Part shown: piece by piece, positions 6,655 to 57,334 of the stretch
How positions within the stretch are numbered: the stretch's first letter is position 1
Layout of the letters: every line of letters starts with the position of its first letter
IMG/VR virus record: IMGVR_UViG_3300044996_000496
Coordinates: 23,579 to 87,578 of that record
DNA length: 64,000 nt
DNA from: a virus
Strand: one strand, 5' to 3'
The notes under the pieces: generated by a model
What the model saw: only the letters and a program-made list of their open reading frames with translations
Told to the model about the DNA's origin: nothing
The model's database searches: none
Program-made: the position numbers and the translations under genes

Positions 6655-7224
6655 TTAAATTATTTTGTCTATAAACCCGAGCTTGAGTGCTCTTACTGGT
6701 GATAAATAAATATCATTGCCCTCTCTGAGCATTTTGTCTAATGTATTATAGTGCAGTTTGGTGTTGCTTGATATGATTTTGCAGTATATTTTGTGTATTC
6801 TGTTGAACTCTTTAAGCATTTCCTCCATTGCACGCAGGTTCGAGTCTGATATTTCAGTTTCTTTTATTCCATGCATCATTATTGTGCTTTGCTTAAACGC
6901 ATGTCTGTTTCCGATTGTTCCGGCAACAAGCGGTAGGACAGCTGCCGATGCTGCTATCCCGAGACAATATGTATTTATTTGACATTTTGCATTTTTTATT
7001 AGTTCATATATTCCTATTGAGTAGTATACATCCCCACCGTCGGATGATATAATTATATCTATTGGATCTGCTTTTTTATCCATAAAATCGAAATCATAAA
7101 ATTGTTTTGATATTTCCGAGCACGTTGATGAGTCTATTATTTTGCCAAAAAATATTTCTCGTTTTTTACGTGGTAATTTTTTTGTCACATACCACCCCCC
7201 TTTATTACATAGATACATTATCAA
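6655..7224 (-). CDS. clpP: ClpP-family serine protease
   Basis: ISSDGGDV, AASAA (Ser), TIMMHG (His), NDIYL (Asp), ALKLGFIDKII; likely start GTG 7188 after a G-rich SD. Confidence 0.88.
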   Translation of the reverse strand: MIMYLCNKGGWYVTKKLPRKKREIFFGKIIDSSTCSEISKQFYDFDFMDKKADPIDIIISSDGGDVYYSIGIYELIKNAKCQINTYCLGIAASAAVLPLVAGTIGNRHAFKQSTIMMHGIKETEISDSNLRAMEEMLKEFNRIHKIYCKIISSNTKLHYNTLDKMLREGNDIYLSPVRALKLGFIDKII

Positions 7225-11001: not shown

Positions 11002-11759
11002 TAGAAAAAAAACTAAAAGTTAGTCAAAGTGAAATTGATGAGGTTAGAGATAAATTAATTGGTGCCAAGATTGAAAATGATATGACTGAAAATGAAAAAA
11101 AAGAAATAATGAATGAAATTGATGTAAAAATACAAAGAGCGATAGATGGATGGAATACTGCTCCAAAAGAATTTAAGATGAGATGTATGATTTTGTTTGG
11201 TGTTGATGAGAGTTGGCTTCCAAGGAACAGAAGAACTCATGATCAAACAGAGGTTGATGATATAGATACAAGTTATGATAGGGAAATGTTGTCTGGGCTT
11301 ACAAATAGGGAAAAGCGTATATTTAAACAAAGAGTTGAATCTTATAAAAAGGAATTTGATTTAAATGACTCATCTGATTATGCCATGATACTGCAAATAG
11401 TTGCGGATGAAGTTTTGCAGAGAAGATATATTAGAGACATACTTTTAGAAAAGAAAAATGATGTCAGTAAGTTAATTGATTTATTAAATAAGCGATTATC
11501 TTCTAACTTGGAGACTCTTGGTATTACTAGAAGTAAGCGTAAAGAACTTCAAGAAGAGCAGGAGGGGCACGTTGCTCAAATATCTGACTCTCTTGACGAG
11601 AAGTTAAGAAGCATAGCGAAAATTCATAAAGAACATATGGAAGAAGAAGATATGTATATGAAAATGAAAAACAGTAGATCTGGTCCTGTTAATGTTATTC
11701 CGTCTATGCAAGAACTTCAGGAAACAGCTGAAGAGTTTGGGTACGAGGCGAAAAGCTAG
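10998..11759 (+). CDS. Putative terminase small subunit
   Basis: Helical protein directly upstream of the large terminase; LETLGITRSKRK segment. Confidence 0.55.
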   Translation: MIEKKLKVSQSEIDEVRDKLIGAKIENDMTENEKKEIMNEIDVKIQRAIDGWNTAPKEFKMRCMILFGVDESWLPRNRRTHDQTEVDDIDTSYDREMLSGLTNREKRIFKQRVESYKKEFDLNDSSDYAMILQIVADEVLQRRYIRDILLEKKNDVSKLIDLLNKRLSSNLETLGITRSKRKELQEEQEGHVAQISDSLDEKLRSIAKIHKEHMEEEDMYMKMKNSRSGPVNVIPSMQELQETAEEFGYEAKS

Positions 11760-11760
11760 A

Positions 11761-13368
11761 ATGGCAGATAATAGTATAAAATTAATGAAACATGAAAGAT
11801 ATTATTTGACCAACAGTGAGCAACTTATTGATTTATATAGAGCGGATCCCGTTATGGCTGCTCATGATTTATTGGGTATTCGTTTAATTTGGTTACAACG
11901 TATTGCATTGAGGACAATGTGGTTTAAGTTGTATGTTGCTTTAAACTGGGGGCGCGGAACCTCAAAAACATTTATTTTGGCATTGTTTTGTGTATTAAAG
12001 GCGATGCTGTACCCAGGTATGCGTATAGGTGTTTTTGCCCCAAGTTTTAGACAGCAGGGATTTATTTTTGATGAAATAGAACGTATGATGTCAAATAGCC
12101 CATTTTTGCGTATGTGTGTTAAGGGCGGGAAAATATCTAGGGGCCAAGGAAGAATTTACATGCAGATAGGAAAGTCTATGATCGAAGCTTTGCCGACCGG
12201 ACATGACGGCGGGAAGGCCAGGGGTAGACGTTATGGTGTTGTGGTATGTGATGAGTATGCGCAAATTCTTCCAGATATAATTAAACTTGTTATAAGACCG
12301 ATGTTGAACATTAAAATTGGTGGAGTTTCTAACCAGTTTATAGTTGCCTCGTCTGCATTTTATAAATGGAATCATTTTTATGGATTATGGTGTCATTATA
12401 AAGTTATGGAGGAGAAGTTTCCAGAGCAGTATGGTGTTCTTGATTTTGATTATAGAGATATATTAATGACTAAGAATTCTCCGTTTGAAGTTGATACATC
12501 GATTATAGATGCACAAAAAAGTGACATGCCACATGAGCTTTTTTTGATGGAAAATTTGTCTGTGTTTCCAGATGAAAGTGTTGGATACTTCCCAGCAAAG
12601 CTTTTGGAGGAGGCCACACCGAAAAGAACTCCTATTGCAATAGAGCCAAATAAAGGGGATCACGACGGTATTTATACTCTTGGGATTGATTGTGCTCGAA
12701 CAAAGGGCGGGGACAATTTCTCTGTTGCTGTTTCTAAGGTAGTCGGTGGCAAAATACACTTGGTTAGGCTTGAGTCAATGAACGGCAAACCATTTCAGGA
12801 GATGGTATATCTAATTAGAGTGCTGCTACGTGATTACCCGATGGCGCGTATATATAATGATTATGGTGGTGGAGGTCAGGCAATAACCGATTTGCTTAAT
12901 GAGCCGTGGGCCGACTATTCTAGTGGGAGAAGAGTGGATTATCCGCCAATTTTAGATATAGATGAATATGACGAGTATTCATCATATGAGGGTAATAGGA
13001 TTCTTAAGCAGTTTAAATTTAGTAATGATAGTAAATCTGCTATATTTTCATCCTTTAAGGCAGATTTGGAAAATGGTGTGTTTAAGTTTCCACTCGGTGT
13101 TTTTAAAGATGATGATCCAGATGTAGAGAGAATTGGTCTTGAGATTAAATGTGCAAAATCCGAGTTTATGGTTGTAATGACTGAGCCGACTAGTCATGGA
13201 TATAGATTTGTTACTCCAGAAAATATGAGAGATGATAGGGCGACTTCCATTATTTTATCTCATGCTGCTGCAAGAGATATTATGAAAATAGAGAGAGAGA
13301 CTGGTGAAGTTGAAGATGTTCCAATGCCGTCGGTTGGTGTTTGGGTTGGGGATAGAAGTACATTGTAA
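11761..13368 (+). CDS. terL: Terminase large subunit
   Basis: Walker A-like WGRGTSKT, ARGRR, Walker B VVCDE, VASSA, RNase H-like GIDCAR and DDRAT; ATG 11761 preferred over track start 11692. Confidence 0.92.
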   Translation: MADNSIKLMKHERYYLTNSEQLIDLYRADPVMAAHDLLGIRLIWLQRIALRTMWFKLYVALNWGRGTSKTFILALFCVLKAMLYPGMRIGVFAPSFRQQGFIFDEIERMMSNSPFLRMCVKGGKISRGQGRIYMQIGKSMIEALPTGHDGGKARGRRYGVVVCDEYAQILPDIIKLVIRPMLNIKIGGVSNQFIVASSAFYKWNHFYGLWCHYKVMEEKFPEQYGVLDFDYRDILMTKNSPFEVDTSIIDAQKSDMPHELFLMENLSVFPDESVGYFPAKLLEEATPKRTPIAIEPNKGDHDGIYTLGIDCARTKGGDNFSVAVSKVVGGKIHLVRLESMNGKPFQEMVYLIRVLLRDYPMARIYNDYGGGGQAITDLLNEPWADYSSGRRVDYPPILDIDEYDEYSSYEGNRILKQFKFSNDSKSAIFSSFKADLENGVFKFPLGVFKDDDPDVERIGLEIKCAKSEFMVVMTEPTSHGYRFVTPENMRDDRATSIILSHAAARDIMKIERETGEVEDVPMPSVGVWVGDRSTL

Positions 13369-13382
13369 TTTCGGGTGGTATT

Positions 13383-15059
13383 ATGGAGAGTAAAGTTGGC
13401 GCTCGTCCTGACAGTAACCAGGTTTGCGTTGATAGGCGTAAGCGTGAGGTTAAGTTTGTAGAACAGGTTACTGGACAAAAGGTTGAATATGGTATGAATA
13501 GCAGGGACGAGCTTGGTGGTCCTGTTATTGTTTATTATTCTGGTGATGGTCAAAAACTCGGCTCCAGCAGAGATATGCACGATTCTTCAAAATCGCATGG
13601 TGATATTGATCCTGTTGTTGGATTTGTAGTTCCAAGAAAACAACAAACTGCTATTAAGTATTTAGACGAGGCTAGGGAGTATAATGATCAAAATGCAACA
13701 ATAAATAAACAAATGGAATTATCCAATAAATTATATTTAAATGAGGGAGTTATAGGAACTGCAATAGATATTTTGGTTGAGTTTGCTGTTACTGAACCAT
13801 ATTGGGAGAATGTAGATAACCAAAACGCTCTTGAAATATTAAATCAGTGGAAAGATTATTTAAATTACGGGAAACCGAATATAGTTCAGGGAATAGAGGG
13901 GTTGAGTCGCGAAATGGCTTTAGATTGGTTTATTTGTGGCAATGTTTTTCCGTTTGTATCTTGGAGTTCTAAGGCTGGAAGGCAATTTAAGTTAAGAAGA
14001 GACAATGTGTCTCTTCCAGATTCTATATCGCTTTTAAATCCTCTTGCTGTAGAGATTCCAGATGGACCAGTTGAGTTTGGGCAAAAAGTAATTTTTCTTA
14101 AATTAAGTGATAAAGTTAGGGATGCAATTAAATATAAAGGAAACGATGATATTGAATTAAAAATTATTAGGGATAATATGAGTCAGGAATTGATAAATAG
14201 TATAATTAAATCAAAAGATGATAAATTGTTTATTCCAATTGATCCAAGATATGTTTGTCACCTAAGGAGAAAGGGAAGAAGCTATCAGCCATATGGCGTT
14301 CCGTACTTGACGAGATCATTTGGCGCAGTTGCCCATAAAAGAAAACTGAAAGCTTTGGACGATGCTACTACAGACGGTTTGATAAATAAAATTACTGTTT
14401 TTAAGATTGGTGATAAGGACAATCCTAAAACATGGAAGCCAGAGCGTATACGTGCATTTGCTCGCTTGTTATCTAGCCCGACCGCTACAATGTACCTAGT
14501 ATGGGCGTATGATATTGATAAAATAGAGGTTGGGCCTAGTGGAGATGTGCTAAATTTTGACAAGAAATATGAGAACGCAAACAGGGATATCCTTGAGGCG
14601 CTCGGGGTGCCGACCACACTTATTCTTGGGGCGCAAGGCGGAAACCTGCAGGACATTTGGGTTACTGTTTTGGCACTTCTTGAACGTCTTGAAGATTTTA
14701 GAAAAAATGCTGCTATATATTTTAGCAATATTGGTAGAGAAATTATGATAAATAATGGATTTGGTAATATTTATCCAAAGCTAGAATATGGTCCGGTAAT
14801 GCTTAGAAATGAAGAAAAGGTTAAAGATCTTATACTTAAGCTTTATGATAGAGGGTTGTTATCGTTTAAGACAGCCATACGTGATGCTGGTTACAGTTAT
14901 GAGAAGGAACTAAAGATAAGGAGAGAAGAGGCCAAAGAAGAGCTTGATAAAGTTTTTATGCGCAGAGATCTGCCATATTCTCCTGCAAAAAATAAACAAG
15001 AATTAAATAGCCCAGAAGATGGGAGACCTAGCGATTCGAGTGATGATGGCGTAAAGTGA
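13383..15059 (+). CDS. Portal protein
   Basis: Follows terL; AIDILVEFA, WFICGNVF, HLRRK...YGVPYL, ILEALGVP. Confidence 0.82.
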   Translation: MESKVGARPDSNQVCVDRRKREVKFVEQVTGQKVEYGMNSRDELGGPVIVYYSGDGQKLGSSRDMHDSSKSHGDIDPVVGFVVPRKQQTAIKYLDEAREYNDQNATINKQMELSNKLYLNEGVIGTAIDILVEFAVTEPYWENVDNQNALEILNQWKDYLNYGKPNIVQGIEGLSREMALDWFICGNVFPFVSWSSKAGRQFKLRRDNVSLPDSISLLNPLAVEIPDGPVEFGQKVIFLKLSDKVRDAIKYKGNDDIELKIIRDNMSQELINSIIKSKDDKLFIPIDPRYVCHLRRKGRSYQPYGVPYLTRSFGAVAHKRKLKALDDATTDGLINKITVFKIGDKDNPKTWKPERIRAFARLLSSPTATMYLVWAYDIDKIEVGPSGDVLNFDKKYENANRDILEALGVPTTLILGAQGGNLQDIWVTVLALLERLEDFRKNAAIYFSNIGREIMINNGFGNIYPKLEYGPVMLRNEEKVKDLILKLYDRGLLSFKTAIRDAGYSYEKELKIRREEAKEELDKVFMRRDLPYSPAKNKQELNSPEDGRPSDSSDDGVK

Positions 15060-15086: not shown

Positions 15087-15464
15087 GTGGAGCGTACAGA
15101 AAATAAAAATGATAGTAATGGTAGATCATTTAGCATTATTGCCGTTATTACAATGTTAGTTGGATTTGCAACTATATGGAATGTGATGAACGCACAAATA
15201 AATTCACTTAAGAGTACCATTGATGCAATTGGTGTTAAGGCCGAGGCCCACTCATTTGTTGATAGTCACCCAGGTACTAGTGAAAGACTTGGCAGACTGG
15301 AAGAAAGATTATCAGCAACGGAGGCGTCAATTTGTCACACTCAAGATGTAGCCAATGTTAGACACCAGGAGATACAGATTGACACGCAAATGTTATGGAA
15401 AAAGGTTTTTGGTATCGATTATCCGTCCAGGGAGTATTGGCCGTTTAAAGGGGGATCAAAATGA
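15087..15464 (+). CDS. Single-TM plus coiled-coil membrane protein (holin-like candidate)
   Basis: FSIIAVITMLVGFATIW hydrophobic helix, then RLGRLEERL. Confidence 0.5.
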   Translation: MERTENKNDSNGRSFSIIAVITMLVGFATIWNVMNAQINSLKSTIDAIGVKAEAHSFVDSHPGTSERLGRLEERLSATEASICHTQDVANVRHQEIQIDTQMLWKKVFGIDYPSREYWPFKGGSK

Positions 15465-15568: not shown

Positions 15569-15593
15569 TACTTATTTTCTTTAAGGAGGAAAT

Positions 15594-16388
15594 ATGTTTA
15601 AGAGAGTTGCTATAGCTATTATTTTATGTTTTGTTATGAGTTCTAATGTTTTTGCGGACGCTCTTTCAAACTATTATTTGCAACTTATTTATGAAGAGTT
15701 AAATGGAACTGCTCCATTGGGGCGCGGTGAAGCTGTAACTGACTCTATGCTCCTAGAGTGGATTCTTGATTCTTTGGAGGTTATAACTGTCCAAGATTCT
15801 ACTCAAATTTCTCTATATAATACTTTATTTGAGATTAAGGATTCTTTAGTATCTAAGTTAGATTCGGTAATTTCGTGTAATTTGATTTTGGCGGATAAGC
15901 AGGACTCATCTTTAGGCTGGCTTGGTTCTATAGATTCAACGGCCAATGATATGGAGGTTACTTTGAATGCAATACAGGCTTCTATCGATGATAGTGTTAT
16001 TGCCAAACTGAATCTTATCTTTAGGGAACTTGAACCCTCTGATACGATGGCGATATTCCAATATCCAAGTGCATCTCTTGAATTGAACGATTCTTTTACT
16101 GTTATTTTAGCGAATACGGATAGTAGCGTGTATTATCCTTCAAAGTTTTGGGGATATGATCTAGTAAAATATGGAACAAATGATGGACCAATTAGGGCCA
16201 TTTTACATTTTACAAGTGGTCATATTGATACTTTGGATATTCCATTTACTGGCCTGAGTCTTGGTGCGCAGGGGAGTTTTCTTCCTTCTGCCGTTTTTTA
16301 CCCAATGGAATTGGATTCGATTCGTATTAAGTGTACGGAGGCACTTGATTACTTGTCTATATTTTGGTTTGCTAAACATACTCAGTAA
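15594..16388 (+). CDS. Exported protein A (signal peptide, helical stalk, C-terminal beta domain); paralog of 18178-18948
   Basis: MFKRVAIAIILCFVMSSNVFA|D signal peptide; AAGGAGG SD; 10 D(S/T)(AILVMT) motifs. Confidence 0.8.
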   Translation: MFKRVAIAIILCFVMSSNVFADALSNYYLQLIYEELNGTAPLGRGEAVTDSMLLEWILDSLEVITVQDSTQISLYNTLFEIKDSLVSKLDSVISCNLILADKQDSSLGWLGSIDSTANDMEVTLNAIQASIDDSVIAKLNLIFRELEPSDTMAIFQYPSASLELNDSFTVILANTDSSVYYPSKFWGYDLVKYGTNDGPIRAILHFTSGHIDTLDIPFTGLSLGAQGSFLPSAVFYPMELDSIRIKCTEALDYLSIFWFAKHTQ

Positions 16389-16524
16389 TGGAGTGTGAAA
16401 GTGGGCGACGACGAAGGTTGGGACATTTTCACCGTATGTTTTAGAAATTTTGTTATTTTTGTTGTTTGTATTTTTATTGCCGTTGTCGTTATTTCTTATG
16501 TTTGTAAATAAGGAGTGGTTTGAC

Positions 16525-17370
16525 ATGAGGGTTTTGAGTTTATTTTTAATTTTATTGTTTAGTTCTTTAAGTTTTGCCGATACGGCTCGACCTTTGATAA
16601 GCACGAGTTTTGAAGATGGTTTTGCCGGATTGGCCGGATTAGGGGCTGATACGTTAGAGTGGGGTATAGTGTTATACAATGGGGACGGCGCGAGCTGTTA
16701 TATTGATTCAACGGTTTCTTATTTGGGTTCTAAATCTTTAGCGGTTACTGGAGATTCTGGAGCAGCTGGCATAAGGTGCTGGGCTGAGATTTTCTTTCCT
16801 ATGAGCAAATGGTTACACGTTAGGTATATGGCTCGTTATGATCGGCCATTTGTTGGTCTTGGAGAGCATCCATCTGGATTGATACACTATTGGAATGACG
16901 TTAAAGATAACCCAATTGGTGATGGTAAAAAAATGTGCAGAATTGGTTTACAATCCTCAAGTGTAACCCTTATGTCGTGCGGACTGGAAGACACACTTCG
17001 AGTGTTGCCGTCAGATTCGTTGGCGCTTTATTTTGTTACACGCGATGATACATGTGGTTTGAATTCGCAGTTACCGACTAGGTGTTATGGAATTATCAAA
17101 AGGGATGAATGGCATCGTTATGACATAATAATGAAAAATGAGTCAAGTGGATATATTAAGCGTTATGTTGATGGCAAATTGGTTTATTCTGAATCAGCAG
17201 TATTGGATACATCTGCGGCGAATTATTTGCATCTTGGAATTTGGAATTCTTTTGGTACTCAGATTGGTGAAGGTTCTTATTATTATGATTGTTTATTAGT
17301 TGATACTTCATATAGTATTCCGTGTCGTGCGGCAGAGTTGGGGCTTGATTCGCTTCCGATGAGAAGGTAG
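16525..17370 (+). CDS. Exported protein B, concanavalin A/LamG (polysaccharide-lyase-like) beta-sandwich
   Basis: Start ATG 16525 after AAGGAG; signal MRVLSLFLILLFSSLSFA|D; SFEDG, YLGSKSL, DEWHRY, YVDGKLV, YYYD. Confidence 0.7.
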   Translation: MRVLSLFLILLFSSLSFADTARPLISTSFEDGFAGLAGLGADTLEWGIVLYNGDGASCYIDSTVSYLGSKSLAVTGDSGAAGIRCWAEIFFPMSKWLHVRYMARYDRPFVGLGEHPSGLIHYWNDVKDNPIGDGKKMCRIGLQSSSVTLMSCGLEDTLRVLPSDSLALYFVTRDDTCGLNSQLPTRCYGIIKRDEWHRYDIIMKNESSGYIKRYVDGKLVYSESAVLDTSAANYLHLGIWNSFGTQIGEGSYYYDCLLVDTSYSIPCRAAELGLDSLPMRR

Positions 17371-17378
17371 GTGTTGAT

Positions 17379-18161
17379 GTGAAGAAAATTATTGTTGGGA
17401 TTATATGTTTAACTTTTATTTCAAGTTTAGTTTTTCCGTCCTCTCGGATTTTTTATGCTGGCATGGAAACTGGAGATTTTAGTGAATTTTCTAGCACAAG
17501 AACGAACGGGACTGCAACATTAACAAATACTGGGGTATATCAGTTTTGCGGAACAAAGAGTGCAATGTCATCTGTCTCATCTGGTGTTAGTAGTAGAGCA
17601 TTTGCAAACAAAGGAATTACGTCATCCAGTTATTTGCATATCAAGACAAGATTTTGCAATCAGTGGGATTCTGGTGGCTCAAACCCTAAAACAATTTTTG
17701 GATGTTTTAAAGTTAGTGACGGAACAAATTCAAGATTGACGGTTCGTTTAAAAGATGCAACTCCGAGTAATTATAATAGTAACTTTACATTCAATGTTGC
17801 GGTAAAAGATTCTGCGGCTCATGCAAATATTTCGACCGACATTGCTACTCCATTGGTTACTGACAGTGTATGGTTTGATTTTGATGTTTTTATTTCAAAG
17901 GGTGTATCAGATGGAGAAATTTCTCTTTGGGTAAACGGAGTTTTACTGCTATCGCTTGATACACTACATACAAGTGGTGCCATGCCAGATAGTATTTCTT
18001 GGGGATGCATAGCAGGTTGGACCACTGGAGATATTGGTACTGTTTGTTTTGATGAAATTGTTATGGACACGATGAGTTGTGGCCCTCCGTGTGGTTTGGT
18101 TTTTAGAAATGGAATTAGACAGGTTTGGTCTGGGATGAAGAGTTGGTTTTCATGGCTATAG
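17379..18161 (+). CDS. Exported protein C, concanavalin A/LamG-like beta-sandwich
   Basis: Signal MKKIIVGIICLTFISSLVF; METGDFSEF, GTKSA, WFDF, GEISLWVNGVL, CFDEIV; Trp-rich C-terminus. Confidence 0.7.
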   Translation: MKKIIVGIICLTFISSLVFPSSRIFYAGMETGDFSEFSSTRTNGTATLTNTGVYQFCGTKSAMSSVSSGVSSRAFANKGITSSSYLHIKTRFCNQWDSGGSNPKTIFGCFKVSDGTNSRLTVRLKDATPSNYNSNFTFNVAVKDSAAHANISTDIATPLVTDSVWFDFDVFISKGVSDGEISLWVNGVLLLSLDTLHTSGAMPDSISWGCIAGWTTGDIGTVCFDEIVMDTMSCGPPCGLVFRNGIRQVWSGMKSWFSWL

Positions 18162-18177
18162 ATTGGGGGAGTGTTTC

Positions 18178-18948
18178 TTGAAAAAATTATTTAGTGTTCT
18201 ATTTTTCTTACTTGTTGTTTTTCAATCGTTTGGATTCTGCGATCAGGATTTTGATGCAATTTCTAATTATTATTTAAATGAAATTCACAAAATATATATG
18301 GGAACAGGAGTGGCGAGGACAGATTCTCTACTGTATGAGCTGATCCGCAGTGAATTGGGAAAACAGAAGCTTCAGGATACAACACAAATTAAGGTTTATG
18401 ATTTAGCCGATACAATATTAACTATATTTGTAACAAAAGCGGACTCTATGATTTTGTGTAATCTTGATTATGGTATATTACAAGACAGTATAAACGCTAA
18501 ATTATACGGAATTGATGGATCTTTTACTGCAGCAGAGGAAACACTAAATTTTATTCAAAATGTAATTGATGACAGTGTTTCTTCAAAACTTAATTTAATT
18601 GAGTATAACATTGCTCCGAAAGATACGTGTCTTATAAGGCTTTTCTCTTCTCTTGCTGCGGATTCTACGTTTCTTATTTATTACCCAGGATATCCGTCTT
18701 TTCGGTGGAGTTATAATTTTGTGAGATATACCACAAATGATGGTCCAATTAGGTTTTTGCTATATTTTACTAGTGGGCGTGCCGATACTTTAGACGCTCC
18801 GTTTACTGCCCTAAATATTGGTGCTTTGGGTGGATTTTTACCACAACCCGTTGTTTTTTCGATGGAGCTTGATTCTATTCGAGTTACTGCTACTGGGGCG
18901 TTGAGTTACTTGGAGGTTATTTGGTACGCGAAACATACTTTGCAATAA
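18178..18948 (+). CDS. Exported protein D; paralog of 15594-16388
   Basis: TTG start gives an MKKLFSVLFFLLVVFQSFG signal; shares SNYYL, IDDSV.KLNLI, TNDGPIR, FTSG..DTLD.PFT, MELDSIR, W.AKHT with protein A. Confidence 0.8.
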   Translation: MKKLFSVLFFLLVVFQSFGFCDQDFDAISNYYLNEIHKIYMGTGVARTDSLLYELIRSELGKQKLQDTTQIKVYDLADTILTIFVTKADSMILCNLDYGILQDSINAKLYGIDGSFTAAEETLNFIQNVIDDSVSSKLNLIEYNIAPKDTCLIRLFSSLAADSTFLIYYPGYPSFRWSYNFVRYTTNDGPIRFLLYFTSGRADTLDAPFTALNIGALGGFLPQPVVFSMELDSIRVTATGALSYLEVIWYAKHTLQ

Positions 18949-19017: not shown

Positions 19018-20811
19018 GTGGAAAACAGTTTGTCCGTAGGCACAGTAAGCGCACTTGACGGCACACTAGTTGTTGATGATTTAATTATTGCGTATGTTAA
19101 GAAAACTCCCAATAAAAATGAATGGTGTATTTATTCAAAAAGCGGAAAAAAGATGGGATGTTATAAAACTAAGGATGAGGCTGTTGAGAGACTTAGACAA
19201 ATAGAATATTTTAAACATAATAAAGCAAATGAATTTATTGATGTTGATGATGTTATTGCGTCATTTGTAATTTATAATTTAGTTTTAAATGGTAGTGAAA
19301 TTGATGTTTGTGATTATTTTGATGAATATTTGTGTGGATGTGATGAGTTAGCAGAGGGTGTTGATGTTACCGAGAATTATTTGCGTTTTAGGCAAACGGA
19401 ACCAGATAAATATGATTCTTTCAGAATTATTAACATAAGTGTTAAACAAGGTATTAAAGCCGTTTTGGGGATAATTAATGGACCACCAAAAAAAACAGAA
19501 ATACAATCTTATTTGTTTGATAAGAGTAAGTGGACGACCAAGGATGCGACAAAGTGGATTAAAGATCATGGCAAGAAAGCATCAGCGTCAGCTAATTCCA
19601 ATATGTTAAGAATAAAGTTTAATGTATCTGATGTGAAAATTGAACAGCCTGATGCTGTGGCGATTGCTAACATAGACTCATTTTTTGATGAAATTGATAA
19701 AAATAGACAAAAAGATTTAATGTATATAGCATTTAAGCTTGTTCACGAGGGCACGAATGCAAATTTAGATCATTTTTTGTATGATGAGTTAAAGTCTGCG
19801 CAAAAAACGCCTATAAATAAACCATTGAATTGGCTGCATTGGGAACCAAATATTGGTGTTATTTATGACGCGACTTTAGTTGACGCTACTGATATTGAAG
19901 GGGCATATATTGAGGCCCATGCAGTAGTTTGGAAGTATAAGTATCGCGATTATGCTATGGAAATCGAAAACCGTCATAGCGAGGGAGAGCTTTTCTTTAG
20001 CATGGAAGTATGGTATTCGCAGTCAGAGTGCCCAATTTGTAAGAAAACATACAGTGCTAGGGAAGAAGCTGCTGGCAAAACCTGTGAACATTTGGCTAGT
20101 AGATTTTACGAAAGAGCGGAAGACCCTAACATGGCAACATGTTACCGCATACTTCGAGGTCTTACATTTGGAGGTGCTGCTGTAGTTGATCTCCCGGCTG
20201 ATAAGGGAGCGGAGGCTTTGGCGGTTGCCTCCAAAAACAAAGCTGATAGTGATAAGGAGGTGTTTGATGCTATGAAGCGACTTGATGATGGGACGTTAGT
20301 TTATACTGAAGCAGAGATAGAAGAGCTTAAGGATAAGGTTAGAGCAAGCGTCCGCGAGGAATTGAGTAACGAGGGTGCCCATGCTAAGGAGTTGGAGGAT
20401 CGCGATAAACAGATAGCTGATCTGCAAAAGACAATTGAGGGCTTAAACACAGAGTTAGCCGAGGCACAGAAGAAGCTGGATGAAACAATAAAAGAATTTG
20501 ATGAGCATAAGTCTAGTATAGAGAAAGAAAAGCTTGTAGCGAAAAGAACGGCTAGTTTGATAGAGGCAGGATATCAGTTTAGTCAAGATGAAAAGGAAAA
20601 AGAAGCTGTTATTGCCTCGTTTGTTGCTATGGATGAGAATGCATTTGAATTTGTATTAAAGACAATTAAGGATAAGAATGAGGAAGTGGCAGCAGCTACT
20701 GCAAGTAGAAAAACTGGTGGAGTTCCAGTTGGTTCTACGGTAACTTCCTCGGGCGGAACAACGCTTGGGCAAAAGATGAGCAAGATTAAGGATTTATTGA
20801 CAAAGGTTTAA
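19018..20811 (+). CDS. Prohead protease / scaffold fusion with extra N-terminal domains
   Basis: NANLDHF...KPLNWLH...FSMEV...FGGAAVV..PAD protease core with CPIC/CEH; long acidic coiled-coil C-terminus; upstream of decoration and capsid genes. Confidence 0.75.
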   Translation: MENSLSVGTVSALDGTLVVDDLIIAYVKKTPNKNEWCIYSKSGKKMGCYKTKDEAVERLRQIEYFKHNKANEFIDVDDVIASFVIYNLVLNGSEIDVCDYFDEYLCGCDELAEGVDVTENYLRFRQTEPDKYDSFRIINISVKQGIKAVLGIINGPPKKTEIQSYLFDKSKWTTKDATKWIKDHGKKASASANSNMLRIKFNVSDVKIEQPDAVAIANIDSFFDEIDKNRQKDLMYIAFKLVHEGTNANLDHFLYDELKSAQKTPINKPLNWLHWEPNIGVIYDATLVDATDIEGAYIEAHAVVWKYKYRDYAMEIENRHSEGELFFSMEVWYSQSECPICKKTYSAREEAAGKTCEHLASRFYERAEDPNMATCYRILRGLTFGGAAVVDLPADKGAEALAVASKNKADSDKEVFDAMKRLDDGTLVYTEAEIEELKDKVRASVREELSNEGAHAKELEDRDKQIADLQKTIEGLNTELAEAQKKLDETIKEFDEHKSSIEKEKLVAKRTASLIEAGYQFSQDEKEKEAVIASFVAMDENAFEFVLKTIKDKNEEVAAATASRKTGGVPVGSTVTSSGGTTLGQKMSKIKDLLTKV

Positions 20812-21568: not shown

Positions 21569-22486
21569 GTGGATATAGAAAAATTAACTTACAGAGAAAT
21601 TGATATTGAATTACAAAAGGCATTGGCGTCTATAAACTGGAGGGATCCGCAAGAACGTTCGGCATTTGCTGAGACTATTGTGGAGGTTGTTAAGTATGAT
21701 GTTGAAAGAGACAATCTAATAGATTTGTTTGCCGAACAGGAGGTTATTCCAGTTGGAGCCTCGAAAGAATGGGTTGTTCGTAAGGGCATAAAAGCTTACA
21801 TTCATGAGCCTGGTTCATATGCTCCAAGATCAACGATTACTAACATTACCAACACAATCCAGTCTGAAATGGCATCGGTCCATCCTCAGATGGAGCTTGG
21901 CCAGCTAGAGTCCGGTCGCTATGGAACCGTTGCTGATATACGAAAAATGTGCAAGGATGAGCTTTTGGGAATGAAGTATGGCACAATTTGGAACGTTATG
22001 ATAGCGTCAATTGCTTCTAGTGATAGCAACTATCAAACGTATTCTGCAACAAATGATAATTTGGTTACAAAGAAAAACGTACTGGTTTCTGGTTTGAAGT
22101 GGGTAAATGATATAGGTCAAGGGGCTAAGGCCATAGTTGGTAGATATTCCCTTGTTTCTGACATTACTGAATTTGATGGATATTCAGAAACGTGGAAAGA
22201 GCAGGTAGACAGAGAGGGATTCCTTGGTGCATTTAGAGGAGTTCCTATTTTGTCACTTAAGCAATACACCAATGGTGATGGCATTAGGATGATTAATGCT
22301 GATAACGTATTTATTTCTTCAAATGGAACGGCCAAAATTGCAGTAACCCAGGAATTGCGCGTTGAGGAAGATAAGGATATTGATACATTGTTCTGGCATA
22401 TGCATATGTACGAGAAGTACGGATGTGCAGTGTTCTTCCCTGAGCGAAATTACAGAATTGCTGTTACAAGCAGTCCTTGGGGTTAG
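21569..22486 (+). CDS. Major capsid protein (HK97 fold inferred)
   Basis: 305 aa after protease/decoration; KAIVG, G.LGAFRGVPI, YEKYGCAV C-terminal pattern; flanked by hairpins. Confidence 0.82.
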   Translation: MDIEKLTYREIDIELQKALASINWRDPQERSAFAETIVEVVKYDVERDNLIDLFAEQEVIPVGASKEWVVRKGIKAYIHEPGSYAPRSTITNITNTIQSEMASVHPQMELGQLESGRYGTVADIRKMCKDELLGMKYGTIWNVMIASIASSDSNYQTYSATNDNLVTKKNVLVSGLKWVNDIGQGAKAIVGRYSLVSDITEFDGYSETWKEQVDREGFLGAFRGVPILSLKQYTNGDGIRMINADNVFISSNGTAKIAVTQELRVEEDKDIDTLFWHMHMYEKYGCAVFFPERNYRIAVTSSPWG

Positions 22487-40356: not shown

Positions 40357-43300
40357 ATGAAGTACGTAGCTTCGAGTGACGAAGTAAACAAAATACATGT
40401 TGCAAGAAGAAAGGTTCCTATTTTTAAAATTGAGTATTTTGATTCTCCGTATATGGTTCCATCTCGCGGAATGGAAATGAGGGTTTATAATGGAACCGAG
40501 TTTGCCGGATCTGATCTTTCATTTGTTGGATACGATAACATACTGTCTCATGACTGGTCTAAAAACGGGCCACCTGGAACCGCATATAGTTATTGTGTCC
40601 AATGGCTTGGATACTTTTACGCAAAGTACAGCGGGGCATACACGTTCTTTTTGACATGCTCAGACAGTGCCAGAATATGCATGTCAACCTCACAATCAGT
40701 TCATCCGAGCGGATTGCAGGCTGGCGACATCTTATCTATGCAAATGGTTCATAATGCTATGGAGTCCATGAGTTCTAGGGACGACTCATGGGAAAGACAC
40801 ATTGATCCATATACCTATAAAGCCTCCATTGTTTTGACAGAAGGAACCTGGTATCCTATTAGAGTAGATTTTAAGAAATTTTATGAATCAGATAATAATG
40901 GACTTGGAACAATAGTTGTTCAATATATTGAGCCAAGGTATGTTGCCAACTCAAGCGGTGAGTATAGTGATAATGAGCCGTGTGCGTTTTATGACGTAGC
41001 AAACGAAATATGTAATGCTGTAGGAAGCAATGCTATAGCGTGTTCTGGGGCACATTGGGGAATTGATTGTTTTTATGGAGAGCTTCATAATGGTCAGGGA
41101 ACTACGGTAAGTGGTCATTTATTTCCAGTTATACATAAAAAGATTCTGAGCGCTGGAGTTGTTAATTATGGTAATGGTGATGGGTGGCGCAATGCTGCGG
41201 ATAGTATGGTTGATTTTATTCAACCAGTTGAACTTGGGGATATTATTGCAGCCCAGGGCAATAAGAGAACCGGGGAAGTTTCCCAATATCTTGTAACTAT
41301 TCCGTTAGGAACTAATTCTAGTTCTAGTTATTTTTTTGATGGAAGTGCTGATAATTTCTTTAGTACAAAACTTGGAACATATATAAGGAAAAATAGGTTA
41401 GTTAAAATATATTCGTCTTATCAAACAAAATGTAATAACTATTCCGCTGGAACGTGTTCACTTGGATATGACTTAACCGCAAGTGGTTTATGGTGGTCTA
41501 AAAATTTATGTTCGAATGGTGGTAACAATATTTGTCCACACTCAACTCCCACTGATAATGATTGGGTTGGTGTATTTACCGGTGTTATATCTGATTTTAG
41601 GATAAATAGATCTGATTCTACTATAACTCTTGTATGTGATGATTTCATGTCTTTTATTCAAACTTCGATTAATGAAAACTATCCAAATATTGCCTCGTAT
41701 GCTGCTGGTGGTGGTGTTACTGGTGATACTTTGTTTTTACATAATAAATTTAATTCATTTAGACCAAATGGAGAGTTGCAAAGATATTCTCGTGATGTTG
41801 TTAATGCATATGATGGTTGGCCAGTTGGAGACGCTATAAGAGATATTCTTACAAAATGTGGCATTGATCCAACTTTGCAATATGGAAGAAAAAAAATAAT
41901 TAATGTTGATGGGACATATAGTTGGGGAGATTATTTTATTGAGAGTAATAAGTACGTTTTATCAGCCCCAAAGAATTTTGGATATGGTGATAGTACGGTA
42001 ATAGCAGATGAGAAAGAAAAAAAAGATGATAAATATATTTGGGGAAGCGACTTTGGTTCGTATCTAAATGACATATATGGTAGAATCGCTGATTTTTATG
42101 GCGTTATAACAGGATTTACTGATGATGGTTATGCAAAGTTTTTGCCATATAATGTTTCTAAAATACTGCATCCATCTCAGATAGGGTGGGACAAGAGCAG
42201 CGGCGCTAGTTTAACTACTGATATAAATGCATATAGAGGAGCTTATTTAAATCTTGGGTCTTCGGATGACTGGGCGTCGGTTAATTTTAATGGCAGTAGT
42301 ATGGACTTAATTATGACGCTCGTTAGTGGAAATGTTCATAATAAATTTAATTTAATACACGATATGTTATTAAGCACTCAGTACTCATCTTTTAATAGCG
42401 TGTTTCGTAATCGTGGCGGATATGGTAAAATGGGTGTTGATTTTGATTATCTACATGTTGGACATATAATTGGTCATCATAAATATTCAAGAAATCGTAG
42501 TTCAGATTCACAAGTTAGTGTGAGCGGGATGACATATTATTGTTATTTTATTCCTAAGGTTACTATGGAAATTAATTCATTGTCTATGTTTTGTGAAAGC
42601 GCGTTTAGAAATAAAAATATTGGAATGAATGTAAATATTAGCATAGGGCACTCGTATTATGGAGCGGGTCACTCTAGTCCAACTGCCCCACTTTTTTATG
42701 TTCATCCAGCATTTAGAAATGGAAAACATACAATTATATCAAATTGGGATCCATTCGCAACTGATGTAGTTAGCGGAAGAACATCATTTGTTTTAACTAA
42801 AGAATTTGATTTTCCATATACCATTTCTGGAAATCAAACATATTTGATTGAATTTAAAACAGATGATATTGTGGCATATGGAACTCCATTAACTGATAGC
42901 GATATTGGGTTTTATAAGTATCAAATTCCATTAGATGGAATAAAAACTAGATTTTGGTTTAGCGATTCATATAATGATTCTGGAATTGCGCATATTATGA
43001 ATACTTATCTTCATGTTAGCGATGGTGGGGAATGTGTTGGATTTATGGGAGCGGCAGATACGACTATTGGAGATATGGGATATATGGATTCTACTACTAT
43101 ACACAAAAATGAATCTACAGTTGCGACTCAGTCTATGCCAGATATTGCTTTTTTGGGATCAAACATAAATAGTCTTGTAAGGGTTTGGGCTGTCCGTGAC
43201 GGCACAACTGTGTTTGATAAGTATGTTTGTCCGATTATTCCATCCGGTCTTGTTGGTGAGTGGGGTTTAATGAGATATTTTCTAGATGGTGAAGATATTG

Positions 43301-46300
43301 GATTTTATGGGTCTAACCCAACCGTATTTCCAATTAGTGCAATGGATTTGGTTGGCCAAAATGAATATGGAAGCATAAATTCTTATGGTAATTACACATT
43401 ATATGTTTCTGGTGGAAATGGATATTGCAATATTGAAGGAGTAAGAATATTTGAGATTGATACCGACTCTCCTTTGCATGAATTTAATACTTATGGGAGA
43501 AATGCTGATTTATTTGAGCTTGATGTAAATGCATCGACTTCCGATTTGCGTAATGACGTTATAGTTGTTGGCGGCGAAAAGGGAGCGGTAATTAATGAAG
43601 CAATCAACAGGACACTAAATAGTAATAACCCAAGAATAAGATATTATTTTTCTCGTATTACAGATATTTCGTCTATTTATGATTTAAATCATAGAGACAA
43701 TATTGGACTTAGAAAGCCAATAATTGTATATGAGCCATCTATTATTAGTGACGAGCAAGCAGATGCAATAGCTAATGCGGTTATACAAAAATATTCCAAA
43801 TCAATAAAAGATCTACAGTTTGTAATACCTGGGATGCCGGATCTTGAACTTGATGATTGTGTTTATGTGAATGATTCACATACTGGTATATTGTCTCATA
43901 ATGGTAAAAGACAATGGGTTTTGGGGATTTCTGATGAAATAAAAAATGGAAGTTTTATTACAACAATTGAGTCATCCTCGTCCAAGAGATGGAATAGTGT
44001 TGAGTTTAAAGATCCGCCAGATAGCTCATTGTTTGGCAGGAATTGTGTGGTCAATGTTAAATTAACAGATGACACAGGACTTGTTAGGATAAGCGGCAAT
44101 GGGTTTGGACCCGTTTATGATCCATACGAGTCCGAAGGGACATCCTATTGGCATGTTGGGGATCTTGATGCGTGGACTAGACAGCTAATGGGATCTTTTA
44201 ATGTTGTAATTCCTGGTGAATATTTAATTTATGTTATTCCTATGATAGATATAAAAAATAGCGATTTTTCTCATATAGAAAATACAAATTTTAGTAGTAT
44301 GTCAACCGAAATTCCTGTTGCATATTTACGTCCAGGCAAAAATCCATCATCTGAGATGGAGTGGTTTTATTTGGGTCCAGGTTCGTATGAGGTTTATTGG
44401 GATGGTGTTGACTATAGTGGGGTTACTCATGGATTTTATTCTATGTCAGCTTTGGCCAAAGAAGAGGATATGGCATTGAATCTCACAGATTCTCCTGTTT
44501 ATTGTCACGATGGGAGTTATTGTATTGTTTTTAAAAGACGAAATATCGGAGAATATTCTTATGCAAATGAGAAAGGTGATACTATTGTTTCTAGTCGTTT
44601 AAATAGTTTGTATAATGATTCAGATTATGGAGTTCAGACGCAAGATGGTGGGAATACACATTCGTGTTTTTGGGATATAGTTAAAGGGCCTGGTATTAGA
44701 CTTGAAGTTATTACATATAGAGATGATGATGTGCCAGGAATTCAATTAAATAACAATGTATTTCCGCACTCTTATGGATATAGATCACATGGTTGGCATG
44801 ATGTATTTACTTCAGATCTTACGCTTGGTCTAGCTATTCAAAATGATTTTTGGAATAAACTTTCTTCACATGGAGATAAGTCTTATATAGAATTTCATGA
44901 AAGCGATAATGGTGGCAGAGGACTAAAAATAGCATTTTATCCATCTGTTTCTGGAAATTTGGATTTGGGTAATAAGCGTTTAATGGCATGTGCGGTTAAG
45001 AATCAATTTTGGAGAGCTACATGGATGCTCCCAGAAACAAAATATTCTATGGATAAAGACTCAAATCTCAGGTGGCAGGGATCCGATCCAGGCGTAGAAG
45101 ATAGATGTAAAGCTTTGTCGTTTCATGGACATCCGGCGCATTGTGTTGGGCCTATAGTGCCGATTGTTGGTGATTCCATAGGAGGCGACGATGGCAGAGA
45201 CAGGGAAAATGTTTGGAGGCGTTTGACATATGGGCATATGACATTATGGAGCGATGCCCATCCAATGAATAATTTGACAAATGATAGCGGGTACATGCCG
45301 AAGTATCCGTTGGTTTATTTGGCGGACGGCGGCTCAAGCGTTTCTCACACTGATCCAATTTATAATTCGTATGTTGGTTCTGTTTTTGAGGGGCTAGAGG
45401 GTCTCGGTGATTATGCGGCCAGGGGAATATTGAGTTTAAAATCACCATTAAATGAATTTGATGTTGATGAGCTTGGAAAAATAGAAATGCTTGAATTTCA
45501 ACCAATTGGTAGTGTATCTTTATATATTGATATTAATCAAGATGCTTTTAAATTAGATGGAGATAAAAAACTTGCTAAATTTTCAATGTCTAAGTATATG
45601 ACACCTGATAGGATGTTTCCATCAAATTCTGATGATATAAATTCAAAAGAACTTATGGAGTTTTTTAGTTCTTTGAGCGATCCAAATAGTGCTGGAGTGT
45701 GGCCCAAGAGTGTTCTATTTGCTAATGCGTTTTGGTTAAAAATATCAATGTGGGATAGATCTGGTAGAAGTATATTGTTAGCAAGTGGATCCCATGTTGC
45801 GCAATATTTGGATAATACTGATATGAGATATAAGTTTATTGCTTTTAATGATTGTGGATTTGTTAACAGAGAAGTTATAGGAAATGCAAAATATAATATG
45901 ATGTTCGTCAATGGAGAAGTTTTAAATGAACATAGTGATAATGATGATCACACTTTTTGGTATTATGGGAAAACAGAGTTTGCTAAAACAAATGAATTTT
46001 ACATAAGAGCATTCTGGAGTCCGGTTGGTGATAGAATTTGGTGGGAAGATTACTCTAAATTCTCTAGCAAGGTTGTTGCTGGTGGAGCGTGGGGATTTGA
46101 CTCAATATGGGAATCAATATCGAAAGATCCAGAAAATTACCCAATTACAACTAGTGGATTTGTTTGGGTTGATACAATTAAGCTTGTTACAGAGTTAAAG
46201 GACGGCGATTCAGTTTCTGGGACCGGGGCAACAATTGACAGAATGCCAAATGGGGCAATAAAATGTAAATTGTTTAAAATGTATTATTTAATATCAAATT

Positions 46301-55915: not shown

Positions 55916-56259
55916 TGCCAGGAACCGATAGCACTAAACCAACGATAGAGGAATTAATTGACGCATTTGCTAAAGATTGGAAAAATAAAAAATATTCAAT
56001 TAAAAGTTTTAATCAAATCAAAATGATGGTACAAGATATAATAAAGATAGTGGAAACAGTGGATCCTGGTGATGGGCCAGTTAAAAAATCTTATGTAACA
56101 GAAATTGCGTTCGCCCTAATAACGATTATACCAATCAACATTAAGTTTCTTGGAGTGAAGATTCCTTCAATTTTTATTAAAATGGCATTAAAATCTATTA
56201 TTAGTAAGTTAATAGATGAAATAGTGGAACATTATAATGTAACTGGAATTTTTAAATAA
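55915..56259 (+). CDS. Hypothetical helical protein (possibly membrane-associated)
   Basis: G..KK..V, IP...IP..., LIDEIVE.YN pattern; last + strand gene. Confidence 0.5.
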   Translation: MPGTDSTKPTIEELIDAFAKDWKNKKYSIKSFNQIKMMVQDIIKIVETVDPGDGPVKKSYVTEIAFALITIIPINIKFLGVKIPSIFIKMALKSIISKLIDEIVEHYNVTGIFK

Positions 56260-57334
56260 TTTGTTCATTTTTATATTTTGGTAGTCCTTCTATATAGGAT
56301 GAGTGTGTTATTTTTGTAAATTTTGCCTTCTTTTGTAGGTCGGCTATTGAGCTTGCCCCGCTATAAGACAATCCGCGCTTGATTCCGGCGCATAGTTTAT
56401 ATATAATGTTTTCGGTTGGGCCAGAGTATTCAACTTCGGTTGAAATTCCTTCGTCTATTGCGTTTATGCCAATGCGGCTTTTTTGATTCCATCCAGATAC
56501 TTCAAATGTTGAGTTTCCTCTGTAAATGTGGCTGGTGCCTTCCTTATTCTTGGTCTCTGCTGCACTTGTTCCAGCCAGAAGCCTTCCTATCATGACAGCA
56601 TTAGCCCCAAGCCCAATGGCTTTAACAATATCCCCGGAAGACCTAATTCCACCGTCAGCAATGATTGGGAATAGCGATTTGGCTCTTATGTTTATTATTG
56701 ACTGAGCGAGCGGTAATCCATGTCCAGTTACTACTCTGGTAGAGCATACGCTTCCAGATCCAATCCCAACTTTAATACAGTCGGCTCCTGCACGCCAGAG
56801 ACTTTTGGCTCCGTCATGAGTAGCAACGTTTCCAGCGATAATAAAATACATGTTTGGATATTCTCGTTCATAGTATGATTTTATTTTCTTAATTGCATCT
56901 ATGCATTTTTGTGAGTGTGCGTGTGCTACATCGACGCATATTACCGCTTTTCTGTTGTGCTTTCTGAATGTATATTCCATTTTTATCGCTCTTTCTATTT
57001 CGTAATCCGTGATACCAACAGATATGCCGACTGACTCAAGCGGCTCAGTGGTGCTTAGTGATTTATTTAGTATATATATATTATCTTCAATTGACATAAA
57101 TCTATGCAATATTCCAAGTCCGCCAACTTTGGACATTGCTACTGCCATATTAAGTCCAGTTATGGTGTCCATATTGGATGATATTATTGGAATGCGTAGA
57201 AATAATTCATGTGAGTTGTTGTTGTTTTTTAGTGTTGTAGATATGTTTACATCTGATCTTGAGTTTAGTAAACTTTTTTGAGGTATAAGCAATAAATCGT
57301 CGAATGAAATTCCGCTATTGTAATTTATTTTCAT
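56252..57334 (-). CDS. guaB: IMP dehydrogenase / GMP reductase family protein, CBS-less
   Basis: [44 protein letters not shown] (catalytic Cys), ADGGI, EG. Confidence 0.88.

Follow-up and report, generated by a model that had tools for sequence, protein, structure and literature searches.

The head-gene cluster of the virus record IMGVR_UViG_3300044996_000496 contains four consecutive genes, here called A, B, C and D, whose products start with predicted signal peptides and are packed with the tripeptide D[ST][AILVMT], which matches the O-glycosylation motif published for Bacteroidota. We analysed the window of 64,000 nucleotides that corresponds to bases 23579-87578 of the 87,578-bp record, which has a GC content of 36%. 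Both protein families to which A-D belong show selection of the tripeptide as a unit. We put the probability at roughly 45% that A-D are exported proteins and that a host system with a wider range than is known so far O-glycosylates them at this motif. Observed directly, and described first, are the anatomy of the genes, the motif with its strength and its fine structure, the conservation of the motif in the families and the mobility of the cassette.

Gene anatomy of the cassette

The four genes lie on one strand and run from the portal side towards the protease/scaffold side. A Shine-Dalgarno (SD) site of its own was read from the sequence in front of each of them. Positions are those of the window, and lengths are in amino acid residues (aa).

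15594-16388, + strand: protein A, 264 aa, ATG start; SD site AAGGAGG at 15583-15589, 4 nt 5' of the ATG; predicted signal peptide at about residues 1-21 (cleavage between VFA and DAL), predicted helical stalk at about 21-146 and predicted jelly-roll head at 152-260
16525-17370, + strand: protein B, 281 aa, ATG start at 16525; SD site AAGGAG at 16510-16515; predicted signal peptide cleaved between SFA and DTA
17379-18161, + strand: protein C, 260 aa, GTG start; AAGG..GGTG stretch 5' of the start
18178-18948, + strand: protein D, 256 aa, TTG start at 18178; SD site GGGGGAG at 18165-18171; predicted signal peptide cleaved between ...GFC and DQD

The open reading frame (ORF) of B that begins at TTG 16450 is too long, because the SD site AAGGAG precedes the ATG at 16525. 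The ORF of D opens at 18163, and the form starting at TTG 18178 is the database protein P0004. With the corrected starts A-D comprise 1,061 aa. The initial annotation, made from the letters of the window, had described a run of four genes between portal and prohead protease. This run was found as described, with an additional 125-aa ORF after the portal gene that had been missed.

The tripeptide is enriched in A-D

D[ST][AILVMT] occurs 10 times in A, 6 times in B, 5 times in C and 9 times in D. When the proteins were shuffled within their own composition, 1.55, 1.22, 1.32 and 1.17 copies were expected, respectively, and the fraction of 20,000 shuffles that reached the observed number was 0, 0.0005, 0.0066 and 0. 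Taken together, 30 copies were observed versus 5.24 expected (Poisson 9e-14). The remaining 97 ORFs of the record contained 84 copies versus 77.5 expected, so that the motif was neither raised nor depleted there. The copy numbers (in about 1,060 aa) and the reading that Ser or Thr follows 13 of about 21 Asp in protein A had already been given in the initial annotation. The former were reproduced exactly and the latter was confirmed at 13/21, and the excess holds both against the composition of the proteins and against the other proteins of the phage.

The fine structure of the motif was then resolved into its positions. Ser or Thr comes directly after 39 of the 77 Asp in A-D, and in the other proteins after 195 of 1749 (odds ratio 8.2, p 1.5e-16). 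After such a pair, one of the residues A, I, L, V, M or T follows in 30/39 cases in A-D and in 84/195 cases elsewhere (p 1.7e-4). The 39 pairs are encoded by 12 codon pairs (TCN, AGT and ACN behind GAT or GAC), and the selection therefore acts on the protein and not on a DNA motif; a DNA-level motif such as GANTC was rejected for this spread. If the sites were used, the proteins would carry about one glycan for every 26-50 residues.

Agreement with the published motif

In the available text of PMC12871550, the Bacteroidota motif has Asp and not Glu at position -1, a slight preference for Ser over Thr as the modified residue, and at +1 Leu, Ile, Val, Thr, Ala, Ser and Met in falling frequency, with occasional Gly, Phe and Cys. 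All three positions agree in A-D. At +1, Leu was found 10 times, Thr and Ile 5 times each, Met, Val and Ser 4 times each, Ala, Gly and Cys twice each and Phe once, so that 39/39 sites have a residue of the published set, compared with a fraction of 0.66 by composition (p 8e-8). The hydroxy residue is Ser at 25 and Thr at 14 of the 39 sites. Glu and Asn do not replace the Asp: E[ST] was found at 4/34 Glu and N[ST] at 7/42 Asn of A-D, which is the level of composition with no excess. The identification of the tripeptide with the Bacteroidota sequon in the initial annotation is upheld by this agreement at -1, 0 and +1.

The same source describes an enrichment of the motif among proteins predicted to be noncytoplasmic, chiefly in Bacteroidota (GTDB), and a presence of the motif in roughly one of every two noncytoplasmic proteins (PMC12871550, available text). 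As far as this text goes, the oligosaccharyltransferase of the system is still undiscovered (PMC12871550), so the range of the system cannot be traced by homology. The literature was searched for two further points. Among the matches listed there was no publication on phage-encoded proteins with the Bacteroidota O-glycosylation motif, and nothing relevant on sequons for general O-glycosylation in phyla other than this one.

The paralogues A and D share 48% identity. About ten aligned D[ST] sites with swaps between Ser and Thr had been claimed for this pair. Eight D[ST] columns are indeed shared and a ninth is off by one residue; the swapping was found at one site alone (DST/DTT), and in the two other examples the hydroxy residue is unchanged.

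Signal peptides

For 15 proteins, namely A-D and 11 relatives (the L002 proteins and nine database homologues), the signal peptides were assessed with a simple heuristic of our own for the n-, h- and c-regions, and not with SignalP. In 15/15 proteins the n-region had a charge of +1 to +4 (1-4 Lys or Arg) and zero acidic residues. The h-region contained in 15/15 cases a 10-residue window with a mean Kyte-Doolittle value of 2.6-3.5 and was followed by small residues at -3/-1. Protein C was the sole one of the 15 without a clear cleavage site. The best evidence for export of A-D is that this amino terminus is conserved in relatives that are only 22-46% identical to A and 21-24% identical to C. 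These features support conserved Sec-type signal peptides on A-D and a predicted export. Sec-type signals on all four proteins had been proposed before, and the heuristic bears this out for both protein families.

Asp stands directly after the predicted cleavage site in A, B, D, a 133-aa signal-peptide protein of the same phage (G000:C1:14661-15062), P0005, P0006 and P0010. A cleavage junction of Phe-Ala followed by Asp is recurrent in this phage and its relatives.

The lipobox consensus at the end of a signal peptide is [LVI][ASTVI][GAS]C. The Phe-Gly-Phe-Cys at the signal end of D does not fit it, and lipoprotein status of D was rejected. Protein A has no Cys at the place of the lipobox; a glycoside hydrolase of family 12 (GH12) of the same phage has Leu-Ser-Gly-Cys. 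A sorting domain of the type IX secretion system (T9SS; Por_Secre_tail and NCBIfam models) was found in none of A-D at a Pfam E <= 0.1 or an NCBIfam E <= 1, and the Atlas structure rows of A-D with T9SS proteins gave template modelling (TM) scores of 0.12-0.16. The idea of such a domain was dropped, although a divergent one is conceivable.

Protein families and predicted folds

A and D had no family match in Pfam, PHROG or NCBIfam, and in a word-indexed search of 5.8 billion proteins A itself was the sole match for A. An A/D profile was then used in an exhaustive HMMER search of 1.84 billion representatives, which gave 12 proteins at E <= 0.001. These were A, D, nine true homologues of 143-303 aa and P0012, which was dropped as a spurious coiled-coil match. 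All nine homologues (9/9) are of metagenomic origin. The common plan is a signal peptide, a variable amino-terminal part and a conserved carboxy-terminal domain that spans about 110 residues. P0007 has no signal peptide in its database form, but its 160-aa cluster mate P0016 has one. By sequence comparison A/D is a new protein family.

The motif is repeated in the family. The nine homologues contain 3-14 copies versus 0.5-2.4 expected, an excess of about 5-8 fold, which has p <= 0.0002 in seven and p of about 0.01-0.02 in two of them. When the nine were pooled with a 465-aa protein of another contig (L002, see below), Ser or Thr followed 89 of 168 Asp and the +1 residue belonged to the published set at 86/89 sites. 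In an alignment of 11 non-redundant A/D members, 89 sites fall into 32 columns; the variable part holds 56 sites and the conserved domain 33. Five columns are common to 6-8 members and 14 are singletons, which shows that sites are both retained and newly created.

An AlphaFold2 (AF2) model of A was built from 13 sequences. Its mean predicted local distance difference test (pLDDT) value was 59, with 65-83 over most of the last 110 residues; helices were predicted at 21-146 and a beta sandwich at 152-260. With this low-confidence model, Foldseek matched Ena2A (9i0y, E 2.7e-4), the amino-terminal lectin of BC2L-C (2wq4, E 2e-3) and BppL of Tuc2009 (5e7t, E 3.5e-3), with TM scores by target of 0.37-0.41 over these matches. 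A wide VIA structure search with the model was uninformative: its matches were taken up by helical hairpins, with Z up to 8.4 over residues 64-147, and the beta domain was hardly probed. The Atlas matches for A reached <= 0.83, which is chance level.

B and C point to another fold. B scored 29.1 bits as the long ORF and 30 bits in a six-frame search with PF14099 (Polysacc_lyase), which has a cut-off of 29.9 bits; the match spans only positions 138-207 of 210 of the profile, its carboxy-terminal third. P0003, which is 75% identical to B, passes the cut-off with 32.5 bits. C stays under it with 16.5 bits (E 0.008). C is putatively all-beta, aligns with B and has an Atlas feature score of 0.94 to a Cip1-like/Polysacc_lyase-like cluster. 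The AF2 model of C was unusable (pLDDT 38.7). B is probably concanavalin A (ConA)-like, at the threshold of Polysacc_lyase, and weak evidence suggests that C is Polysacc_lyase/Cip1-like. The tail of C contains Cys-x-Pro-Pro-Cys-Gly-Leu, followed by aromatic residues at the end.

The cassette in other phages

Relatives of the cassette were found on two other contigs. L002 is an IMG/VR contig of 24,210 bp with 65% GC, which has a TerL and a major capsid protein (MCP) of other lineages; both have distant relatives only, the nearest in Thermus, Halorubrum and Vibrio phages. The A/D homologue of L002 follows directly after the MCP gene and has 14 motif copies versus 2.4 expected. The next gene encodes the 465-aa predicted signal-peptide protein (L002:10319-11716). 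Its amino-terminal part aligns with B and C and its carboxy-terminal end with the tail of C; it keeps the Cys-x-Pro-Pro-Cys-Gly-Leu stretch of C and ends in Trp. It has 4 motif copies versus 1.8 expected, which is not significant alone. The other 14 L002 genes tested showed no motif excess. The 465-aa protein looks like B and C in fused form, and this relation, a fusion or a fission, would link the two functionally.

L001 has 35% GC and a portal protein that is 46% identical to that of the window. There the portal gene is followed by two small genes and then by the A/D homologue. The A/D genes hence stand after the portal gene in the window and in L001 and after the MCP gene in L002, and it is this position that makes A-D candidates for head decoration or head-fibre proteins. 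As A/D-type and ConA-like genes occur in the head cluster of both the window phage and L002, their pairing is conserved in at least two unrelated phage lineages. The B-like P0003 and the A/D-like P0005 were each found on 6 contigs, and the longest contig is 128,076 bp for both, which suggests that they lie together. By its sequence relations the cassette is mobile and spans phages of 35% to 65% GC.

Pattern scans found no relative in IMG/VR, in JGI metagenomes (pattern of P0003) or in GTDB genomes. Scans with the family alignment found L001, L002 and the same phage again (L008-L010), with no further relative. The Microcystis phage MaeS has no insertion between portal and protease. Contigs with the same DNA as the record were found in 7 lake-water metagenome runs. 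The record itself is of the linear class in IMG/VR, and its completeness is 61% by the CheckV estimate.

Proposed mechanism

We propose that the four genes would form an accessory cassette within the head-gene cluster that is expressed late and transcribed with the head genes. A-D, with predicted folds of a sugar-binding type, would be exported by Sec, and their Asp-Ser/Thr-aliphatic sites would be O-glycosylated outside the cytoplasm by a general host system of Bacteroidota-type specificity. Once glycosylated, the proteins may work at the envelope or extracellularly; they might bind or cut polysaccharide of the surface, or attach after lysis to particles that have been released. What we infer here is the export of A-D, their glycosylation and whatever role they may have.

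A more far-reaching version may be added as a speculation that we regard as a long shot. It holds that Bacteroidota-type O-glycosylation operates in an SD-using lineage outside the class Bacteroidia that is free of the Q-rule, and that the phages of such hosts share a mobile cassette of exported, lectin-like proteins, in which there is as much as one sequon for every 26 residues. The host-glycosylated products would then coat the capsid or the cell surface at lysis, on top of a sugar coat that the phage's own cytoplasmic transferases make.

Host markers

Several findings weigh against the proposed glycosylation, and one group of them concerns the host. A core SD motif (GGAG, GAGG or AGGA at -18 to -4) was found in front of 47 of 101 crude ORF starts, as compared with 6.9% of random 15-mers. 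A duplex with a generic 16S tail of dG <= -6 was obtained for 60/101 ORFs versus 188 of 1000 random positions. In L002 a strong SD duplex was present at 14/15 starts versus 404 of 1000 random positions, and in L001 at 2/4. SD-led genes amount to 0.1-2% in the classical Bacteroidota classes, 32% in Ignavibacteria, 13% in Chlorobia, 22% in Gemmatimonadetes, 37% in Fibrobacteria and 74-81% in the Bacillota classes (PMC10783764, available text); as our SD thresholds differ from those used there, only the contrast with the 0.1-2% is safe. The ribosomes of Bacteroidia fail to recognise SD sequences, according to the available part of PMC10798248. The SD pairing histogram was symmetric and core-centred with shoulders on both sides, and gave no pointer to a host class.

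The Q-rule leads to the same side. Among 334 Bacteroidetes species there are 332 in which more than 48% of the signal-peptidase-I substrates expose Gln; the mean is 71%, and the value is 77% in Ignavibacterium album and <9% in most Chlorobi (PMC5837995, available text). A Gln after the signal peptide was possible in at most 2 of the 15 proteins studied here, P0006 and the 465-aa protein of L002, and in these at alternative cleavage sites only. The Bacteroidetes-type promoter pattern was also not enriched, with 5 matches versus 3.86 expected; sigma-70-like sites numbered 35 versus 46.3 expected and terminator-like sites 7 versus 7.3. The promoter result is uninformative, because the phage encodes two sigma factors of its own. 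These factors may explain the absence of an enriched host-type promoter consensus in the late region.

No host could be assigned by similarity, by tRNA or by prophage relatives (GTDB genomes). There is no tRNA gene in the window or the whole record, and the phage collection contained no DNA match to the window and no protein match for A. The relatives of TerL, MCP and portal are 20-30% identical and belong to the Bacillus phages Slash, Stills and Basilisk, the Microcystis phage MaeS and the Clostridium phage Amboise. At 56252-57334 (- strand) the window has a gene with a barrel of the type of guanosine monophosphate (GMP) reductase and inosine monophosphate dehydrogenase (IMPDH), without CBS domains, whose best homologues, from various metagenomic sources, reach only 40-46% identity. 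It is no guide to the host, because the names of the homologues are mixed (archaeon, Patescibacteria, Acidobacteria).

The initial annotation had deduced a diderm host of the Fibrobacteres-Chlorobi-Bacteroidetes (FCB) group that has the glycosylation pathway. This deduction gained no independent support, and the SD use and the Q-rule speak against classical Bacteroidota. The heavy SD use together with the failure of the Q-rule makes a typical host of the class Bacteroidia unlikely. The host possibly belongs to an SD-using lineage of the wider Bacteroidota/FCB group or to another phylum altogether. With markers so unlike those of typical Bacteroidia, the proposed glycosylation needs a pathway that reaches further than has been demonstrated.

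Alternative explanations

The second group of findings that weigh against glycosylation concerns the distribution of the motif. The GH12 lipoprotein of the same phage, which is of the exported type, has 0 copies versus 0.83 expected, and the 133-aa signal-peptide protein has 0 copies versus 0.38 expected. The enrichment is thus specific to the proteins of the A-D families and not to the compartment. The 125-aa ORF in front of A is also free of the motif. Two giant fibre proteins without a signal peptide are slightly raised, with 12 versus 7.7 and 21 versus 13.8 copies (33 versus 21.6, about 1.5-fold). The low-confidence model of A places D[ST] sites at or beside the amino termini of helices in four cases (D50, D68, D114 and D133). 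The same fibre proteins are raised for the motif [VIAT]SG, with 12 versus 4.4 and 21 versus 8.3 copies, whereas A-D have 1, 0, 1 and 1 copies versus 0.3-1.0 expected and are not raised. The idea of two sequon systems split by compartment, which had been put forward in the initial annotation, is consistent with these counts, as D[ST]x is strong only in A-D and [VIAT]SG is raised in the fibres; both motifs are putative sequons.

These points can be accommodated if the tripeptide is an unglycosylated structural or ligand-binding element intrinsic to the two families, with a host from beyond the FCB group and a coincidental match to the Bacteroidota sequon. Candidate roles are a helix N-cap or an Asx/ST turn within the stalk, and pairs of polar residues at beta edges or within metal or sugar sites. 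The unusual host markers, the motif-free exported proteins, the raised fibre proteins and the helix positions in A all suit such a role, as do the five columns that keep the site in 6-8/11 family members and the recurring Cys-containing stretches in which P0009, P0013 and P0014 carry the motif. We nevertheless judge this explanation unlikely, although it deserves serious attention, because the enrichment is common to two unrelated folds, the cytoplasmic proteins (including the scaffold-like one with its coiled-coil-type stretch) have 0-1 copies and 14/32 site columns are lineage-specific. That Glu and Asn are excluded at -1, and that the rule at +1 holds at 39/39 and 86/89 sites, also fits the specificity of an enzyme better than a mixture of structural roles. 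In another reading the tripeptide could be the site of an undescribed system, unrelated to that of Bacteroidota, that modifies or processes exported proteins and that is maybe tied to the large sugar toolkit of the phage. The motif is selected in phages whose hosts use SD sites and ignore the Q-rule, the phage has genes for an amino-sugar pathway and no fewer than five genes of glycosyltransferase type, and the range of the Bacteroidota system, with its undiscovered oligosaccharyltransferase, is untraceable by homology as far as the available source goes. We know of no such other system, and the close match to the Bacteroidota motif at the sequence level makes it distinctly improbable.

Two further explanations were weighed. 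The amino-terminal hydrophobic stretches could be uncleaved anchors or start-codon artefacts, so that the proteins would stay in the membrane or the cytoplasm as head accessories. The unclear cleavage site of C and the location of the cassette at the usual place of head decoration genes, beside the MCP gene in L002, would suit this. Each SD site is positioned for the start that gives a Lys/Arg-rich n-region, and 15/15 proteins have the three-region layout (n, h, c) together with small residues at -3/-1; retention inside the cell is accordingly very improbable. Even further from the data is an enrichment by chance or by amino-acid or nucleotide composition, for which we see virtually no room: the shuffles rarely or never reached the counts, the Poisson value is 9e-14, 12 codon pairs are involved, and the excess was repeated in 9/9 homologues on other contigs, one of them with 65% GC. 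O-glycosylation of exported A-D by a host system stays our working explanation.

If the motif is a working sequon, A-D would be exported phage proteins with a dense load of sequons, in a protein family that is new, and would provide a handle on how far Bacteroidota-type O-glycosylation reaches beyond the classical classes and on whether tailed phages use the extracytoplasmic glycosylation of the host for parts or accessories of their particles. For phages that have not been cultured, the motif could also mark the host lineage. Should it be no sequon, a very strict tripeptide rule (125/128 sites) in two unrelated folds still wants an explanation.

Neighbouring genes and other glycan-related genes

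The cassette is bordered by the portal gene upstream and by the protease/scaffold-like gene downstream. The features of the head cluster and of the region upstream of the window are as follows.

11692-13368: TerL
13383-15059, + strand: portal, PHROG 2739 (portal, E 4.7e-17); upstream border of the cassette
15087-15464, + strand: 125-aa ORF 5' of A, one hydrophobic segment near the amino terminus, taken as a membrane anchor, 0 motif copies
19018-20811, + strand: protease/scaffold-like gene, downstream border of the cassette; 0 motif copies versus 1.99 expected
between the protease/scaffold-like gene and the MCP gene: 216-aa gene
21569-22486, + strand: MCP, PHROG 16565 (E 7e-25) and PHROG 2522 (major head protein, E 6.9e-5)
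G000:C1:10622-11437 (L005), upstream of the window: GH12 glycoside hydrolase, Pfam E 2e-14, lipoprotein-type signal
G000:C1:13400-14038 (+) and 16030-16644 (-), L005: two sigma-70-family factors (regions 2 and 4)

The 125-aa ORF gave a weak match to PHROG 1863 (unknown function) and nothing else. The weak matches of the protease/scaffold-like protein were PHROG 16389 (E 2.7e-16), the scaffold PHROG 73 (E 0.0097), the protease PHROG 18299 (E 0.04) and Pfam Phage_GPO (E 0.005). The MCP is 22-25% identical to head proteins of Slash/Stills-type Bacillus phages and of the Microcystis phage MaeS. The starts of several late genes, at 20851, 21569, 31635 and 54912, have a GGGGGTGA-type SD site, with pairing deeper into the 16S tail, and the start codon is often GTG or TTG.

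The GH12 protein is a further predicted exported, glycan-active protein of this phage and lacks D[ST]x. A tail or fibre protein of 2014 aa is encoded at 40357-46401 and has an amino-terminal carbohydrate-binding domain of the PA14/GLEYA type (E 1.8e-9). It contains 29 Cys, and a 2813-aa FN3 protein contains 22. A ClpP-family protease lies within the glycosyltransferase block at 6655-7224 (- strand), and a stand-alone Peptidase_C39 domain protein of 145 aa is encoded at 59959-60396 (- strand).

Comparison with known systems

A periplasmic phage protein that is exported by Sec and acts at the envelope of the infected cell is known from T4, where it is called Spackle. Unlike A-D, Spackle carries no sequon load and is not encoded in the head cluster, and it has no relation to A-D in sequence or fold. 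In the predicted architecture, a helical amino-terminal part with a small jelly-roll head, the A model resembles BppL of Tuc2009, the BC2L-C lectin and Ena2A. These matches are weak and without sequence similarity to A/D, and the three proteins are not Sec-exported products of phage head-cluster genes. B and P0003 reach or just pass the cut-off of the ConA-fold clan with PF14099 and Cip1-like proteins, and C appears similar to it by language-model features. The profile is matched in part and C stays below the cut-off; a lyase activity is not implied, and B and C may be lectins.

Compared with classical Bacteroidota, this phage differs in that it uses SD sites and that its signal peptides do not expose Gln. 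With the O-glycosylation substrates of Bacteroidota, A-D share the predicted extracytoplasmic location and all three positions of the motif, as given in the available text of PMC12871550. They differ from these substrates in that they are encoded by a phage, that the glycan on them is a predicted one and that their motif density is far higher, at 5-8 times the chance level.

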